DNA from: a virus
Lineage: Duplodnaviria; Caudoviricetes
DNA length: 35,196 bases
Virus record (IMG/VR): IMGVR_UViG_3300007004_000007
Span: 1 to 35,196 of that record
Reading direction: 5' to 3' (one strand)
Notes under the pieces: model-generated
What the model saw: the letters and a program-made list of their open reading frames with translations, nothing else
Databases searched by the model: none
Told to the model about the DNA's origin: nothing
Shown here: in pieces, positions 2,493 through 35,014 of the stretch
How positions within the stretch are numbered: the stretch's first letter is position 1
Layout: every line of letters starts with the position of its first letter
Made by a program: the position numbers and the translations under genes

Positions 2493-5129
2493 CTACATCG
2501 TCCCCAGGATGCCATGACTCATCCCGACCCTGAGTCCCACCCAATGCCAGGTTGATATGCGTTTACGCTCATAGCCCATGTCGATGAGTCTGCGTACGAC
2601 TTTCTTCGCGCCCAACGGTTTGATCATGTTCCGTCCGCACCATTCCTGGTAGATGCGGAACAGGTGACCGGAGTCGATTCGCTCCTCGGCGGCTTCGACG
2701 ATCAAGCCCTCAGCAAGGCCGTCTTCGATGAACTGTGCCACGGTGTCCGACTCCAGCTTGTGTGCGGCCACTGAAGTCTTCACCGCAGCTGGCTCACCCA
2801 GGCCCGATTCGCGATACTTGGCCAAACCAGCCAGAAGCCAGTTCAGGATCCCCGATGCCTCTTCGGCAAGGATCTTCGCACCGATGTCAGGGACAGCTTT
2901 GTTGGCCCCGTCGCGGCTGAACTGGGTGTTGAAGTGGATCGGCTTGACCCGTGCCCAGATGGCGGAGTCATCAGCGTCCAGTTGTGGCAAGAAGTTCGTC
3001 GCCATCCAGATGGAACATTCAGGGTCCCAGGACTGGTTCTTCTCATACAGGTCCCGGGATACGATCTCATCGCTGCCAGTGAGGCGCTTGATCAGTTCCT
3101 CATCCAGGACAGCCCTCTCCGAAGTTTCCGAGGTGGCCACGAAACGCTTGCCCCGCAAGCCATGTAGGTCATTGGTCTGCCCAGACCTGTTGACTCGCAA
3201 GGCAGCTGCGGCTGCGGTGCCACCGAAGTCAGCGAACAGCTTCGTCATCAGGCTCAAGAACTGGGACTTACCAGTGCCCGACGGTCCATATAGGATGAAG
3301 ATGGATCGTTCGTCAACTTCCCCGGCCAGCGTGTAACCCAAGGCACGCTGAATGTAGTCACGCACCGCCGGGTCAGGCATGAGCTGAGCCAGGAATGCTT
3401 CAAACCTAGGCGCTTTGGCGGCTGCGTCGAAGCGTGCACCAAAGACTCGGGTGAGCATCAACTTCGGGTCGTGCGGCCCCAGTTCCCCAGTGAGCAGGTT
3501 GAGTGTCCCGTTCGCCACGGTGATCAGTTCCCTGCGCGAGTCGAAGTCGGCTGAGCCTGCTGTGATATCAGATTGCGCGGCGAACTGGCTGACAGCTGAA
3601 CGGATACGCTGATGGGACTGCGAGGAAACGCCCCATTTGTACAGCTTCTCACCCTTTTTGGGGTCTTCGATGCTGAGCTGCCGAGCTTCGGCGAAGATCT
3701 GCTCCGTCATCTTCACGGCGGCCTGGTTGATCCCAGCCGTCATGTCGGGACGCCAGCTCATCTGATTCCACTGATACCAGGTGTTCTGGTGGAAGTGCCA
3801 GCGGAAACTATCACCGAACATGTCCTTCATCCGAACCGCGTTGCCCACGTCGGATGGGACATAGTCGGCCGGAGCCGGTTGATCAGCCTGAGGTCCAGGC
3901 TGAATAGGTGGAACTGGTGGTGGGGATGGAGCCTGGGCTTGCTCGATCATCTTCGGTTCGATCATGGATGTCAGGTCAACGCGTGGCACGGAAGGCTCCC
4001 GCGCCCCACCGTAGCCAAGCTTGCGAAGATCAGAAGCAGCCGCGCTGAAGTCCCCGCCATGGTGGATGAGGGCATACGCGGCGAACTTGTTGTATGCCTT
4101 GTTGGGTTCGAAGGGTGCCCACTCACCGGAGAAGACGTACAGCCGATCTTCGTCAGCTGCCCGGCCAGTGGTGCCCGAATGCCCACCTGAGTCCTTGCCC
4201 GGCCGACGCCAGTAGCCTGTCTGACCTCGGGAGTACATGTAGGTTGCGCCGTGGGGCACAAGGATCTGCGACCAGGACGTCCTGGCGGCGAAGTCAGCAC
4301 CAGGTGTCAGGGCCTCACCTGGGGTGGGGATGCGAGGTGGGTTGACGGGGCGGGGTGCCTCCTCAACCGGCAGGGCCTTGAAGATCTGGTTGACCTGGTC
4401 GGCGAAAGCTTCGAAGGTGTAGAACTCGTATGAGGCGGGCTGAAGCACCTGGGCGGTGACAGCTCCACCGGCCTTGCGGTTCACGGTGCCGGGGATCCGA
4501 AGCACCCGGGCCAAGTCGCCAACCTCGGCACCGTAGTGCAGGCCAAGCCGCTTCGCGGTGTGGTGCAGGATCTGCTGAAGTCGGCTGGAGATCAGCTCAG
4601 CTTCGGCCAGCGGCACCTGCCCCTCATCCTCACCAAGGATGCGTGAGGCCTCCAGAAGCCACCATGGGTAGAGTCCGCCACCGGAGTGAACCCACAAGGT
4701 CGGCTGGGGCAGGCCAGCTTCGGTGACGATACTGATGGCTTCGGCGATGGTGGCAGGCAGTCGACGGCCTTCGTGCTTGGCCGGGTCGTGCTTGTGGCCT
4801 GGGCCTTCGATGTCAATGTCAGCCGCGAAGCCTGGTAGGGATTGGGACAGATCAGCTCCACCGCGAACGGGGCGTCCGGACTCATCACGTGGTATGCCGC
4901 TTAGTGTGGTGGTCCGCATGTAGATGCCTTCGGCACCTGAAGCGTCGAGCCGGGCCACGTAGTCGGCGGCGTCGGCGGCATCGGAGAAGGTGCGGCCAAC
5001 CCAGTTGCCCACGGAGCAGATGTGTATAAGCCCTGGTGAACTGGCATGGAGAAGGTCGAGCCACCCCCGTACGGCACTTGGGTCGTAGGAGTGTTTGACC
5101 TGGGGTTCTTCGATTGCTATCATGCACAT
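2493..5129 (-). CDS. DNA primase/helicase (RepB-like primase + D5/P4-family SF3 helicase)
   Basis: Primase motifs DID, HSGGGLYPWW and RVLRIPGTVNRK; D5_N-like DVGNAVRM; Walker A GPSGTGKS; IKRLTGSD. Start is 5129 or 5123. Confidence 0.9.
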   Translation of the reverse strand: MCMIAIEEPQVKHSYDPSAVRGWLDLLHASSPGLIHICSVGNWVGRTFSDAADAADYVARLDASGAEGIYMRTTTLSGIPRDESGRPVRGGADLSQSLPGFAADIDIEGPGHKHDPAKHEGRRLPATIAEAISIVTEAGLPQPTLWVHSGGGLYPWWLLEASRILGEDEGQVPLAEAELISSRLQQILHHTAKRLGLHYGAEVGDLARVLRIPGTVNRKAGGAVTAQVLQPASYEFYTFEAFADQVNQIFKALPVEEAPRPVNPPRIPTPGEALTPGADFAARTSWSQILVPHGATYMYSRGQTGYWRRPGKDSGGHSGTTGRAADEDRLYVFSGEWAPFEPNKAYNKFAAYALIHHGGDFSAAASDLRKLGYGGAREPSVPRVDLTSMIEPKMIEQAQAPSPPPVPPIQPGPQADQPAPADYVPSDVGNAVRMKDMFGDSFRWHFHQNTWYQWNQMSWRPDMTAGINQAAVKMTEQIFAEARQLSIEDPKKGEKLYKWGVSSQSHQRIRSAVSQFAAQSDITAGSADFDSRRELITVANGTLNLLTGELGPHDPKLMLTRVFGARFDAAAKAPRFEAFLAQLMPDPAVRDYIQRALGYTLAGEVDERSIFILYGPSGTGKSQFLSLMTKLFADFGGTAAAAALRVNRSGQTNDLHGLRGKRFVATSETSERAVLDEELIKRLTGSDEIVSRDLYEKNQSWDPECSIWMATNFLPQLDADDSAIWARVKPIHFNTQFSRDGANKAVPDIGAKILAEEASGILNWLLAGLAKYRESGLGEPAAVKTSVAAHKLESDTVAQFIEDGLAEGLIVEAAEERIDSGHLFRIYQEWCGRNMIKPLGAKKVVRRLIDMGYERKRISTWHWVGLRVGMSHGILGTM
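5095..5123 (+). promoter_or_regulatory. sigma70/SigA-type promoter antisense to the primase gene
   Basis: TTGACC-N17-TATCAT with an extended -10 TGn. Confidence 0.7.
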
Positions 5130-5206
5130 ACCTTGTTTCTCTCGTCCACTCCTGCCTAGCATCGGGAGTGGACCGCAAGCCCAGAGCTACCAACTCTGGG
5201 CTTTTT
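5130..5206 (+). ncRNA. putative counter-transcribed antisense RNA
   Basis: Starts after the promoter; unpaired 5' tail, stem-loop 5144-5173, and terminator hairpin 5177-5203 running into TTTTT. Confidence 0.6.
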
Positions 5207-5251
5207 GCGTTCCCGACGAAGATCGGAGTGGTGGGCTGATCCTAAAGGACT

Positions 5252-5296
5252 GGGGCTGGACTGGGAAGCCATCTCAAGTTTTCCTGGTCCAGCCCC
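5252..5296 (-). terminator. hairpin after ssb (terminator/attenuator)
   Basis: GGGGCTGGAC...GTCCAGCCCC extended stem about 10 nt past the ssb stop. Confidence 0.6.
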
Positions 5297-5305
5297 GTGA
5301 TCTTA

Positions 5306-6148
5306 CTAGAACGGAGCCTGATCTGCCCCATTGGCCGGGTCTGCCTGTGTTGCCCGAATTGCCGCTAAAGTGGACATTTGGGGTGCCGGGCTGACCTGAG
5401 CCGGTGGAGCCGACGGACCCCCAGTGGCCCAAGCCGGTGGCGGACCCTGCTCATGGTGAGCCGGTGACACCGGAGTCGGGTCGGCGTAGCCAACAGGCGC
5501 ATGCTGCGGGTGCCAAACCGGCTGAGCCTGAGCTGGCGGCCTCGGGGCGGCCTGAGGTGTAGTCGCCCAAGGGTCAGGCGTGTAAGCCTGCTGGGGTGGC
5601 TGCTGTGGTGGCGCACCCCATCCAGCGGTCCAGGTGCCAGCGTGGCCAGGTGCCTGGGGCGCTGGCTGCTGCGGGTAGCTCGGCTGGGCTGGAGCAGCTG
5701 GTGCTGGGGCAGACCCCGGTGCAGGTGGCATGTAACGCACCGCGAACAGCTTCGGCTTCTGCCCAGCGTCGGACTCCATGTCCTCACCAGTGAAGGTGAT
5801 GTCCACCCAGCCGCCCACAGCCAGGAACTTCGCCCCGGATTCCAGGATGGCCTGCTTCACTGCTTTCTCGAAGTGCTTGCCTTTGACGTAGATGGTCCGC
5901 TCACCTGTGTCCGGTCGAGCCCGGTCAGGTGTGGCGATGCCCTCCCAGTTGCGGAAAGAGGTCGCGACGGACACCAGCATCTGCAACTTCGGATCCCCGG
6001 AGGGCCAGAACGCCGGATCGTTGGTTTTGAAAACCTTCTGCTGCTGAACCGTCGGCGGGGCCAGGATCTGACCAACGATCCGGTCACCGAACTGGCGGAA
6101 GCTGAAACCTGGGTTGCTGGAACCCATGAGAAAGGACTGGGCGTCCAT
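5306..6148 (-). CDS. ssDNA-binding protein (actinophage type)
   Basis: N-domain FSF..FGD.IVG.I...W.SGDPK.Q...R.IYVKG...PKLF.VRY; P/A/Q-rich tail ending in PF; lies between exonuclease and primase. Confidence 0.7.
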   Translation of the reverse strand: MDAQSFLMGSSNPGFSFRQFGDRIVGQILAPPTVQQQKVFKTNDPAFWPSGDPKLQMLVSVATSFRNWEGIATPDRARPDTGERTIYVKGKHFEKAVKQAILESGAKFLAVGGWVDITFTGEDMESDAGQKPKLFAVRYMPPAPGSAPAPAAPAQPSYPQQPAPQAPGHAGTWTAGWGAPPQQPPQQAYTPDPWATTPQAAPRPPAQAQPVWHPQHAPVGYADPTPVSPAHHEQGPPPAWATGGPSAPPAQVSPAPQMSTLAAIRATQADPANGADQAPF

Positions 6149-6394: not shown

Positions 6395-7248
6395 TCAACC
6401 ATCCCCTCGCCGAACTTGCTCATAGCGTCAACGGCGTTTCCGCAGCAGCCCTGCGTCGAAGCAACTCCCACGCCTCCGCGATACCAGGGGCAGTAGGAGC
6501 AACCTTTGCCCGGGCTGGCTGCGATGGCTTCGAAGTCGAGCTGATCACCCTGGGCGATGAGGGTGTCGGCAAGTCCGTACATTCGGTCAAGAGCACGCTG
6601 TGCTCGATCTGGCTCGGCGCGCTCCAGCCAGACGCGGATGTCAGAAAGCCAGCCGGAGCGGGGGATGGCGACGAGGCAGACGAACCGCACCGGCAAACCG
6701 GCGTTGACGCATCCTCGGGCATACAGGTTCACCTGATCCTTGTGCAGCTCCGACGGGCCTTTTGACTTCCACTCTTTAAGCTTGGTGGGGCTGACCGTCT
6801 TGTAGTCGATGACGGCTTGCAGCTCCGAGTCGTACAGGTCAGCGTGGCCGACAACGTTGGGGTCGGGGTGGATGGTCAGCTCGGTCTGCCAGCGATCCAT
6901 GTGGTGGATCTTCTGGAAGTTGCTGACCGCCGACTCCATCCAGGTGTGGATGGCAGTGCCGACGATCGCTGGCAGCGGGTCCATCCAGTCGTTGACCTCA
7001 GGTGTCCCAGCCAGCCGGTAGGCAATCTTGCGCAGGCATTCGTCACCCAGCTCCGACGGGCCGATGGTCTTCTGCATGCTGCGGGCTGAGCGCTGATCAG
7101 TCCACCGGATGATGTCAACGAGGTCTTGGCGCAGATTTTCTGCTGCTACTTCCAGCTCATTCACAGGTTGGCAGGTGGGATGGAATTCGCTGCCCGCCAT
7201 GGTGAGGACTTCGTCCATGCGCTTGCCACATTTGAGGCACAGCTTCAT
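6391..7248 (-). CDS. Cas4-family/PD-(D/E)XK exonuclease
   Basis: PSELGDEC.RK, GTAIH, GHADLYD, IDYKT, QVNLY, and C-terminal CSYCPW...C Fe-S ligands. Confidence 0.85.
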   Translation of the reverse strand: MKLCLKCGKRMDEVLTMAGSEFHPTCQPVNELEVAAENLRQDLVDIIRWTDQRSARSMQKTIGPSELGDECLRKIAYRLAGTPEVNDWMDPLPAIVGTAIHTWMESAVSNFQKIHHMDRWQTELTIHPDPNVVGHADLYDSELQAVIDYKTVSPTKLKEWKSKGPSELHKDQVNLYARGCVNAGLPVRFVCLVAIPRSGWLSDIRVWLERAEPDRAQRALDRMYGLADTLIAQGDQLDFEAIAASPGKGCSYCPWYRGGVGVASTQGCCGNAVDAMSKFGEGMVE

Positions 7249-7679
7249 CGAATCTTGTTTTTCAGCGAGGGGATATCGGACCGGTACAGGAAGGTCCCCA
7301 AAACGCCCAGAACCGCATGCCTATGTTGTGCCATATGAGCCTCCCCATCAGCTTCTGCTTCCAGATCCTCCGTCCGCACCCCCAGATGTTGGGCAGCTGT
7401 ACTGGCGGGGACGAGATCGCTGACGTTAACACCCAGCTCCGACAATTCCTCCAAGGCTTCCTCGGCCCAGTGGAACCACTCCCCGATGCGTTTAGCGCTG
7501 TCCAGGGTCATGGCCTTGCCCAAGCCTTCCCACTGCCGCAAAGCCTCCGAATCCACCCCAATCAGACGTGCCTGGGCATTTCGGGTCAACCCGACCTTTT
7601 TGCGCAGCTGTGCAAGATCTCCCTCAAGCGTGACATAGAAGCCAAGTTTGACGAGGTCGTCGCGGGTCGGTTGGGCCAT
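7245..7679 (-). CDS. XRE-like HTH DNA-binding protein
   Basis: LRKKVGLTRNAQARLIGVDSEALRQWE; second HTH-like segment ASTAAQHLGV; TAAGAT 7 nt upstream of ATG 7679. Confidence 0.75.
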   Translation of the reverse strand: MAQPTRDDLVKLGFYVTLEGDLAQLRKKVGLTRNAQARLIGVDSEALRQWEGLGKAMTLDSAKRIGEWFHWAEEALEELSELGVNVSDLVPASTAAQHLGVRTEDLEAEADGEAHMAQHRHAVLGVLGTFLYRSDIPSLKNKIR

Positions 7680-7764
7680 GCCGCTGATCTTAGACCTCAC
7701 CGCCCCTTACAAGTCAAGCATCAGATAAGCAGCGAATCGGACATAAGGGCTGTATGGTGGGGTC

Positions 7765-15667: not shown

Positions 15668-15760
15668 ACGCTACCCCATGCCACACATCTTGGCAACAGG
15701 GCAAATCGGGGGGTGCTAAAACGGACAAAAGTTGCCAAAGGAAGTAAAGCCACCTAGCAT
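15668..15760. promoter_or_regulatory. back-to-back divergent promoters
   Basis: Minus strand TTGCCA-N17-TAGCGT (15696-15668); plus strand TTGCCA-N17-TAGCAT (15732-15760). Confidence 0.7.
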
Positions 15761-33597: not shown

Positions 33598-33879
33598 GTG
33601 GATTTCAGTGAAGCTCTGGTGCGGGCCCGCCTGGTGGGTAACAAGATCACCCGACGGGGCTGGGACGCCGCAGGTCAGTATGTGGTCTACCAGAAAGGCT
33701 ACCCAGACGGGATTGCCATCAACGCCAACACCGCCCAGGCGACCGGCCTGCCTGAGGGAACTGTCTGCGTCTTCCGGCCTTACCTGATGCTGTGCACGGC
33801 CGACGGCTCATTCGTGCCCTGGGCTCCCAGCGTCAGCGACGTGCTGGCCATGGACTGGATCTTCGTCCCCCATGAGTAA
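33598..33879 (+). CDS. DUF2829/Thoeris anti-defence 2 (Tad2)-like protein
   Basis: MDFSEAL.....G.KITRRGW...G.YV...PYL...TADG..VPW.PS.SDVLA.DW family signature. Confidence 0.85.
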   Translation: MDFSEALVRARLVGNKITRRGWDAAGQYVVYQKGYPDGIAINANTAQATGLPEGTVCVFRPYLMLCTADGSFVPWAPSVSDVLAMDWIFVPHE

Positions 33880-34066: not shown

Positions 34067-34430
34067 GGTCTACACGTACAGGATCGAACGCCCCAGGGAG
34101 CCTGAGAAGCTTGTGGCAGGGTTGGGGGGTGCTGCCGACCTGGTCCGCAAGCACAACAAATGGGTTCAGGAGATCAAACTACAAGTCGACGGTGGGGACA
34201 TAGTGCTCATCCTCACCATGAGTGGCCATGACCAGTGGTGGATCAAAAAGCGAGTCATCTACCCCCTCGCGGCCATCCTCATCAAAGCCGGTTTGACACT
34301 CAAAGACGCCCGGCTTCAAGCAGTTGAGCGACTACCCGACAAACGCATCACCCGGCCTCGGGCATCCGACGGGGCCAGCACCCCCGACCCCGACAAGATG
34401 ATCGATCACAGCGACATGATGCAGGCATAA
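34056..34430 (+). CDS. hypothetical protein
   Basis: AGGAG SD; 124 aa; ends at a terminator. Confidence 0.7.
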   Translation: MVSRVYTYRIERPREPEKLVAGLGGAADLVRKHNKWVQEIKLQVDGGDIVLILTMSGHDQWWIKKRVIYPLAAILIKAGLTLKDARLQAVERLPDKRITRPRASDGASTPDPDKMIDHSDMMQA

Positions 34431-34431
34431 G

Positions 34432-34466
34432 GAAAGGCCCCCCAGTTGGAGCCTGGGGGGCCTTTC
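34432..34466. terminator. bidirectional terminator
   Basis: 14-bp inverted repeat GAAAGGCCCCCCAG/CTGGGGGGCCTTTC. Confidence 0.8.
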
Positions 34467-34468
34467 GT

Positions 34469-35014
34469 CTAGGGCGCTTTGTTCAGCTTGCTGACCACGA
34501 TGGGTTTAACTCCTATGGCCGCCAGGCGGGTGTCGCGTTTGGAAACTATCGGCTTGGTCCGCAGGTAAACCTTGCGACCAAGGTAGTCGGCTGCCGTCAC
34601 TATGGTACCGAGCAGGATCCGGCTGCCATGAACCTCGGTTTTTCCCTGAGCCAAACCCCTTATCCGCTGCCACGAACGCACCTCGCCTTCACCATACTGC
34701 CGCACGTGGACGCCGAGGGCGACGCGATGGGCGTCGATCAGCTGGCAGGCCTGAACAACATCTGTCATCTCCTCGTCGTCCAACGTCAGCCTCAGGTGCA
34801 GGGCGTCCACCCATTGCAGAGCTGCGTTCAGGGAAGTTCCTGAGCTTGACCTGATGAAAACGTTGGCAAGTGTTGTAGCCGACTGTCCGCACATGCGGCC
34901 AAACCTGCTTTTTGAAATCCCCTGCCGATTTATTTCATCGAGGACCAGTTGGGCCAACTGTTTGCTGTCGGTGATGACAAGCCCTCCGTGGCGAATGGAG
35001 CGCCGAAGACTCAC
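34469..35014 (-). CDS. tandem XRE-like HTH protein
   Basis: Two repeats: L.....RQGISKSRFGRMCG...L......DAL.L.L and I..HR.ALG...L.TI...AD.LG.KV.L. Confidence 0.6.
   Translation of the reverse strand: MSLRRSIRHGGLVITDSKQLAQLVLDEINRQGISKSRFGRMCGQSATTLANVFIRSSSGTSLNAALQWVDALHLRLTLDDEEMTDVVQACQLIDAHRVALGVHVRQYGEGEVRSWQRIRGLAQGKTEVHGSRILLGTIVTAADYLGRKVYLRTKPIVSKRDTRLAAIGVKPIVVSKLNKAP

Follow-up and report, generated by a model that had tools for sequence, protein, structure and literature searches.

The window analyzed here is a 35,196-nucleotide (nt) stretch of the genome of a tailed soil phage (Duplodnaviria; Caudoviricetes; IMG/VR record IMGVR_UViG_3300007004_000007), a record estimated by CheckV to be 60% complete. 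Its primase-helicase gene (2493..5123, minus strand) encodes 876 amino acids with a helicase half of the P4/D5 type. The product passes the P4-family model TIGR01613 by 204 bits above the cut-off, contains D5_N and DUF5906 domains, and matches DNA primases in PHROG and in the PDB (7ola), while no isolated phage covers 80% of it. On the opposite strand, the first codons of this gene overlap a predicted promoter, from which a predicted 77-nt antisense RNA (5130..5206, plus strand) would run across the leader of the primase mRNA. This candidate RNA and that leader are the subject of our analysis.

The initial annotation had placed the start codon of the primase at ATG 5129. The codon at this position reads ATC in the 82%-identical relative L003, and the related proteins P0001, P0003 and P0019 start M-I/L-x-I-E-E-P; thus, the start codon is ATG 5123, and starts at 5129 or 5162, neither of which is conserved, were rejected. 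The antisense promoter (5095..5123, plus strand) was correctly described, with a -35 element TTGACC at 5095-5100, a 17-nt spacer, an extended TG at 5115-5116 and a -10 element TATCAT at 5118-5123. It lies entirely within codons 1-10 of the primase, the -10 being the reverse complement of codons 1 and 2 and the -35 occupying codons 8-10. The close relatives L003 and L083 have TTGACC-17-TAGCAT at this place, and more distant relatives have TTG-17/18-TAnnnT. In loci whose -10 overlies the ATG, codon 2 is ATA, CTA or GTA, which is rare in the primase gene (ATA makes up 4 of 47 Ile codons), a partly circular argument. A plus-strand protein gene at 5095-5394 was also considered and rejected, with a blank PHROG search and a terminator inside the frame.

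The extent of the predicted RNA follows from its fold and a covariance-model match, and its start from promoter spacing. It would begin with a single-stranded tail of 14 nt (5130..5143), complementary to mRNA positions -7 to -20. The tail is unpaired in the predicted fold and complementary to the mRNA ahead of the start codon, as previously proposed, but the reference point is 5123 and not 5129. The mRNA stretch opposite the tail includes a weak ribosome-binding sequence, AAGGU (5134-5130). Stem-loop 1 (5144..5173), with 11 base pairs (bp) and an 8-nt loop as originally noted, shows compensatory changes among relatives and contains U-G pairs that are valid on the plus strand only. It is followed by an intrinsic-terminator-like hairpin (5177..5206), predicted from the fold and from covariation. 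The 10-bp stem of this hairpin (5177-5203) is present where it had been placed, but the U run (5202-5206) does not lie wholly beyond it, with two of the five U's inside the stem. The terminator loops (5187-5193 in the window) differ among relatives. Inspection by eye suggests a YUNR motif, on one strand or the other, in about seven of nine loci, a count set against no chance control. The stretch 5130-5207 folds with -36.5 kcal/mol (z -6.0; 0 of 200 shuffles). An Rfam search of the whole window (4227 families) found nothing at 5095-5216 and gave a single match, at 34426-34568 (E 0.66).

Conservation of the antisense cassette

Related loci were assembled from two primase alignments, A2 (79 viral loci, the best 80 of 168 metagenomic loci and 78 genomic loci) and A3 (10 loci). 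After removal of duplicates, 109 loci were scanned, at first with strict criteria; 16 of them had an antisense promoter close to the start, compared to 16 of 1016 coding windows. In a second scan, the -35 was relaxed to TTG, a choice made after the loci had been inspected; the promoter was then found in 21 of 109 loci on the antisense strand and 2 of 109 on the sense strand, against 4.4% in shuffles. Among 20 pairs of hit and start codon, the -10 lies exactly over the ATG in 10 and at an offset of -7 in four. The promoter alone occurs in 24 of 153 primase loci (50 of 1530 shuffles), and the promoter with a terminator 50-125 bases on in 16 of 153 (2 of 1530 shuffles). The sole locus outside the clade that passes for both elements is L192, upstream of 3001 in a Nonomuraea corallina contig, and could be either a chance hit or an independent case.

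In a FastTree phylogeny of 101 rows, all 18 promoter-bearing rows fall into one branch of 47 rows (support 97), and 14 integrase-bearing rows lie outside it. Left out of this tree were L145, L146, L150 and L158 and the integrase-bearing complete records L022, L044, L047 and L054. The remaining 29 rows of the branch did not score positive for the promoter. A second tree gave a poorly supported 85-row clade mixed with integrase-bearing loci, of which only the pooled counts were used.

Nine loci align well and form two groups, A (the window, L003 and L083) and B (L006, L008, L009, L241, L145 and L248). The RNAs predicted for them are 77-82 nt long with two hairpins in all nine. In group B, 99% of cells are paired and 8 of 17 pairs show changes in both partners (0 of 500 shuffles, a contrast inflated by the kinship of the sequences). 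A covariance model built from group B only matches the window at 5125-5217 on the plus strand (E 0.0016). Across 92 sources (1.05 Mb), the best non-training matches of this model are the window, L083 and L003 (E 0.0016-0.011), followed by the reverse strand of the window (E 0.025) and L026 (E 0.2). Since a model from group B recovers the loci of group A, the two groups are homologous. Over the nine loci, 40 G-U pairs occur in the antisense folds versus 9 in the sense copies, and the antisense fold is the more stable one in eight; therefore, selection on the antisense strand is indicated. Both the covariation of the stems, found in group B, and the retention of the promoter in relatives agree with what the initial annotation had led one to expect. 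Further members were sought with DNA patterns: a loose pattern gave 120 loci, among which one of the 100 rescored fits the model and belongs to a contig already known, and a tight pattern found nothing beyond two known contigs. Taken together, the comparisons point to a real RNA family that is absent from Rfam and would be a variant of an already known type of antisense control.

Two variations on the layout were noted. In the subclade of L019 (start 9974), L093 (2180), L095 (2852) and, by eye, L111, a leader open reading frame (ORF) of 13-34 codons has a stop codon that abuts or overlaps the primase start. The start of that ORF is overlain by an antisense promoter whose -10 begins with C; this suggests control through translational coupling. 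The proteins of L083 (1743 onward), P0019, P0104 and P0107 share the same primase half, with a second half that lacks a D5 domain call (P0019 is 80% identical over 47% of the query). They may represent a helicase swap beneath an unchanged antisense cassette.

The mRNA leader and a proposed mechanism

The primase gene probably has a promoter of its own (5239..5267, minus strand), with TTCCCA at 5267-5262, a 17-nt spacer and TAGGAT at 5244-5239, convergent with the antisense promoter. Transcription would start near 5232 and yield a leader of about 110 nt. Exactly one sense-strand TAnnnT is found 119-134 bases before the antisense -10 in all nine loci; one such match per 80-base stretch has an estimated chance of about one in two, so that the evidence is its aligned position, for which there is no chance control. 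TTCCCA is kept 17 bases before this -10 in all three members of group A, and the -35 matches of group B are poor. Eight further loci gave a candidate sense promoter in six and none in two. A GC-rich hairpin (5252..5296, minus strand) directly follows the stop codon of the upstream gene and overlaps the primase -35; in L003 its sequence differs and its pairing is kept, and it is likely the 3' end structure of the upstream transcript.

The leader is predicted to form a long fold-back (5146..5231, minus strand), in which 5231-5211 pairs with 5167-5146. It encloses the complement of the terminator hairpin, and in the window the ribosome-binding stretch stays open in the predicted fold. In all nine loci, the first 24-34 bases of the mRNA can pair with the target of stem-loop 1 (0 of 500 shuffles in each). 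Compared with folds in which the 5' end of the leader is unpaired, the fold-back gains 11.6-24.2 kcal/mol, part of which that end regains by a small hairpin of its own. RNAalifold finds two-sided changes in six outer pairs. In the window, the predicted fold-back leaves 5143-5124 largely unpaired, which is the exact complement of the RNA tail. In group B, a hairpin of 4-6 bp is predicted to hide the Shine-Dalgarno (SD) sequence; none is predicted in the window. The probable convergent primase promoter and the predicted fold-back of the mRNA 5' end are additions to the initial annotation.

Based on these elements, we propose, with a probability of about 55%, that the 77-nt cis-antisense RNA blocks translation of the primase-helicase and thereby damps replication in a probably lytic infection. 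The main sigma factor of the host would read both promoters, which face each other about 100 bases apart, producing the ~110-nt mRNA leader and the antisense RNA. The first 25 bases of the mRNA, folded back on the target of stem-loop 1, would leave the single-stranded stretch beside the start codon as the open entry. There, the RNA tail would pair first and then zip into a duplex, in the manner of pMV158 RNAII. The duplex would cover the site of ribosome binding in the window, L003 and L083, abut it in the six more distant loci, block initiation and perhaps invite cutting by RNase III; convergent transcription may add to the repression. The purpose could be a dose-dependent ceiling or timer on replication as genome copies rise, as opposed to lysogeny.

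The initial annotation had compared the layout with pT181, pIP501 and repABC-type plasmids, of which the first two are described as acting by attenuation (PMC5703833). Four consecutive U's occur in none of the nine leaders, and only 7-19 bases separate the target from the start, so that it reaches the initiation region; attenuation is therefore a poor fit and was rejected, as the mRNA offers neither a U-run terminator nor room for a stem between target and start. Actinobacterial terminators can lack U runs. What stands, by comparison, of the idea that an antisense RNA limits the replicase is a conserved, structured antisense gene over the ribosome-binding region of the primase-helicase; the pT181/pIP501 comparison, taken as a mechanism, does not stand.

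Several observations weigh against translational repression by this RNA. The promoter match by itself is within chance for a 35-kb window (one found, 0.56 expected; 48 of 100 shuffles), and what is beyond chance, judging by the alignments, is its position and its conservation in relatives. The relaxed scan was defined post hoc, as stated above. The silent sites of codons 2-10 are identical at 7 of 7 positions in both comparisons against a background of 66-68%, but with p ~0.06. Some close relatives, among them L007, which is one of the 29 rows that did not score positive, lack the layout, which is thus dispensable in part of the clade. Covariation is weak in group A alone (3 of 20 pairs changed on both sides; 62 of 500 shuffles), and the window is the lone exception among the nine loci in that its sense copy folds slightly better than the antisense RNA (-37.5 versus -36.5 kcal/mol). 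The conserved core of the fold-back is nearly invariant, with two-sided change in 1 of 18 pairs (312 of 500 shuffles). In group B, the predicted RNA ends 14-19 bases short of the start codon, where it would cover an anti-SD strand and could free the site rather than block it. The lytic part of the proposal draws on gene absence and on an association of tRNA arrays with virulent phages, and the RNA, its start site and the repression of the primase are all predicted from sequence.

Alternative readings and phage lifestyle

The same RNA and the same repression could instead serve copy-number control in a non-integrated carrier or plasmid state, possibly of a linear replicon with inverted terminal repeats that needs no Par in multi-genome hyphae. 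We regard this as unlikely, although it survives better than any other alternative. In its favor, the cassette marks the integrase-less branch of the primase family, and the integrating branch lacks it. An integrase search covered 50 of 62 intended loci and 17 records that are at least 90% complete; of the latter, seven have a tyrosine-integrase match (in one case below the cut-off), four match a serine recombinase and six match neither. None of the 11 integrase-bearing records passes the promoter test, whereas five of the six integrase-less records do and the sixth, L019, does so only with a C-starting -10. No integrase was found in the six clade records of at least 90% completeness, in G002 (89%), or in the gene annotation of the window. 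However, the contrast is that of one clade against the rest and not a set of independent events. Exact inverted repeats of 127 bases end three records and repeats of 70 bases one. As 127 is a common assembler word size, longer terminal repeats have probably been collapsed. Constant, copy-sensing antisense RNAs are described as typical of plasmids (PMC4485353, PMC5703833), and cluster A mycobacteriophages are described as having Par-linked plasmid prophages with RNA-based origins (PMC7157519).

The gene content argues against a carrier state. ParA is absent from all 50 records, and ParB and telomere resolvase are each absent from the five records searched; divergent forms of any of these could be missed. 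Called genes of six whole records, chosen as non-structural, were searched in PHROGs (135 genes), Pfam (131) and NCBIfam (30), and none matched a maintenance gene or, in Pfam and NCBIfam, a partition or terminal-protein family. These six records do encode small helix-turn-helix (HTH) proteins, RusA, Ro60/TROVE, PNKP, Thg1 and a gp5.9-like inhibitor. All nine clade records carry 5-31 tRNA genes, compared to 32 in one of the 11 integrase-bearing records and 0-1 in the rest. tRNA arrays lean to virulent phages. The arrays are large for phages of 49-66 kb, reaching 31-32 genes in 53 kb, with Ro60/TROVE, PNKP and Thg1 in some; they were seen in L251, L256, L262, L264 and L268 and also in G002, G005, G006, G014, G016, G021, G024 and G026. 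No close member was found in 185,579 species genomes (by pattern scan) or 72,556 plasmids, and no member of the nine-locus group among the 78 genome loci. PLSDB gave four distant matches, the best of which, from Nonomuraea gerenzanensis, has an integrase fragment and a different, HK97-type head module; its leader, inspected by eye, is short and lacks the cassette. Thus, a role in lytic growth is more probable than one in a plasmid state. The phage-plasmid suggestion of the initial annotation is weakened: the integrase is indeed missing from the near-complete relatives of the clade, but so are ParA, ParB and telomere resolvase, and tRNA arrays are present.

A fuller version of the carrier reading is similarly doubtful. 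It holds that a tRNA-rich actinophage clade with inverted terminal repeats may persist in filamentous hosts as linear replicons without Par or integrase, copy-controlled by an unlisted antisense RNA family on the primase-helicase mRNA, whose 5' end mimics stem-loop 1 of the RNA, with one subclade routing the control through a leader peptide.

It is also conceivable, but improbable, that the promoter matters and the RNA does not, by convergent interference with the primase promoter or by origin activation as proposed for lambda pO, with the hairpin at 5177-5206 also stopping plus-strand read-through from the left arm. In lambda, pO activity is reported to affect replication, whereas OOP RNA seems to matter little (PMC3985674). 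The window has a plus-strand promoter-like site at its left end, and gene 1892-2491 and the primase gene converge with no bases between them. However, interference alone requires neither the covariation of stem-loop 1 and its strand-specific G-U pairs nor the complementarity of the mRNA 5' end in all nine loci.

Activation by the RNA, through capture of the anti-SD strand or a directed cut in the leader that frees the ribosome-binding site, appears quite improbable. Its attraction lies in group B, where the RNA would cover the 5' strand of the predicted SD-hiding hairpin and not the SD itself. In the window, L003 and L083, by contrast, the tail extends to -7 over the initiation region, and the window has no predicted SD hairpin to open. 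Moreover, the two groups are homologous, and pMV158 RNAII, which likewise binds immediately upstream of the initiation signals, is described as an inhibitor (PMC4485353). Finally, it is very improbable that the promoter match arose by chance and simply adjoins an ordinary two-way terminator: one such match per window is expected and intergenic hairpins are common in integrase-bearing relatives too, but the fixed position, the covariation, the model matches, the strand-biased G-U pairs and the promoter-plus-terminator counts all disfavor it.

Known systems and genomic setting

Translational repression of this kind would resemble the action of pMV158 RNAII, whose promoter lies inside the 5' end of repB and whose 5' tail is described as driving binding (PMC5703833); RNAII is reported to bind tail-first, just upstream of the initiation signals, and to inhibit translation (PMC4485353). 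As in pMV158/pLS1, the predicted phage antisense promoter sits inside the 5' coding end of the replication gene, and the predicted fold has a single-stranded 5' tail opposite a stretch at or just before the initiation signals, with an intrinsic terminator. In contrast to RNAII (48 nt, one hairpin), the phage RNAs of all nine loci have 77-82 nt and two hairpins. RNAII belongs to the copG-repB operon of a Rep_2 rolling-circle plasmid, whereas here a P4/D5-type primase-helicase of a tailed phage has a probable promoter of its own, a fold-back leader and phrog_1911, not CopG, as the upstream gene. The phage RNA would act like RNAII without belonging to that group: it differs in size, in fold and in the type of Rep, and has no Rfam match.

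RNAI of pT181, RNAIII of pIP501 and RNAI of pSK41 are described as two-stem RNAs (PMC5703833) that are similar in size to the phage RNA and have convergent promoters and leaders with alternative folds, of the kind predicted here. What these RNAs induce, either a terminator or a stem that hides the SD, lies downstream of their target, whereas the phage target reaches -7 to -19. The repABC/repC counter-transcripts (ctRNAs) of p42d, pTi and Sinorhizobium are reported to be short negative regulators directly upstream of the initiator gene, like the RNA studied here, but of 55-59 nt, located between repB and repC and accompanied by ParAB-family partners, of which none occurs here (PMC10194956). Membership in this class, as the initial annotation implied, is not upheld, since ParA, ParB and an Rfam match are all missing. 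In phage P1, an antisense RNA reportedly lies over the kilA start. To judge from the title of Heinrich et al. 1995 (PMC306884, cited in PMC9948254), the P1 lytic replicon is controlled by antisense RNA, so that kilA-repL would provide a precedent for a phage lytic replication function under such control. Unlike the phage here, P1 is temperate and a phage-plasmid, and its replicon has the RepL initiator and a promoter repressed by C1.

Lambda OOP is described as an antisense RNA of 77 nt that terminates itself and is located next to the gene of the replication initiator (PMC3349717, PMC3985674). It is said there to target the 3' end of cII and not the initiator ribosome-binding site, whereas the complement here is an untranslated leader. 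In Synechocystis, pSYSA is reported to have an abundant cis-antisense RNA (asRNA1) upstream of the primase-plus-helicase Rep CyRepA1, but pSYSA is a plasmid, and what is proposed there is ColE1-like primer control on the ssr7036 mRNA (PMC9978351). Our literature search found no description of this RNA or phage group, although a table of 38 undescribed phage small RNAs (PMC12197685) could bear on it, and the review excerpts consulted list no antisense RNA targeting a phage's own primase. Plasmid-type antisense feedback on a replication enzyme has rarely been described in phages, and its presence here raises the question of whether virulent-looking actinophages cap their own replication or have an unrecognized carrier state. 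The cassette comprises about 200 bases, and a working primase-plus-leader replicon, if it exists, would give vectors for rare actinomycetes a tunable component.

The leftward module of the window consists of an HTH-like gene (7245-7700), an exonuclease, phrog_1911 and the primase-helicase, and the rightward module of head, tail and lysis genes. The phrog_1911 gene (5306..6148, minus strand) encodes 280 amino acids; its PHROG match has no assigned function, and its position and acidic/aromatic tail suggest a single-strand-binding protein. The XRE-like HTH gene (minus strand) at the head of the module has homologs in five of seven compared genomes and is a candidate repressor of the leftward module or of the primase promoter. 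Genome-resident relatives of the primase-helicase belong to Micromonosporaceae, Streptosporangiaceae and Streptomyces, and the top capsid match is Actinoplanes phage phiAsp2 (43%). Thus, the host is likely a filamentous actinomycete.

Other features of the window include a Tad2-like Thoeris anti-defense gene at 33598-33879 on the plus strand (PF11195, E 4.6e-19) and a perfect 15-bp inverted repeat at 1181-1219 between convergent ORFs, likely a two-way terminator. A GC-rich hairpin at 34426-34465, also between convergent genes, accounts for the weak Rfam match (Hrs10, E 0.66), which is likely due to chance. The left end (1-110) contains four TGCTCT repeats and an inward promoter-like sequence, TTGCCC-18-TAGAGT, near 82-111, and inward promoter-like sites also occur at the ends of the relatives L254, L257 and L269; the repeats are possibly origin iterons and the inward sites early promoters. 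A promoter-like TTGCCA-17-TAGCAT of the same class as the antisense promoter lies at 15732-15760 (plus strand), immediately before the major capsid gene. Overall, TTG-17/18-TAnnnT sites are found ahead of the capsid gene and at four of nine contig ends examined.

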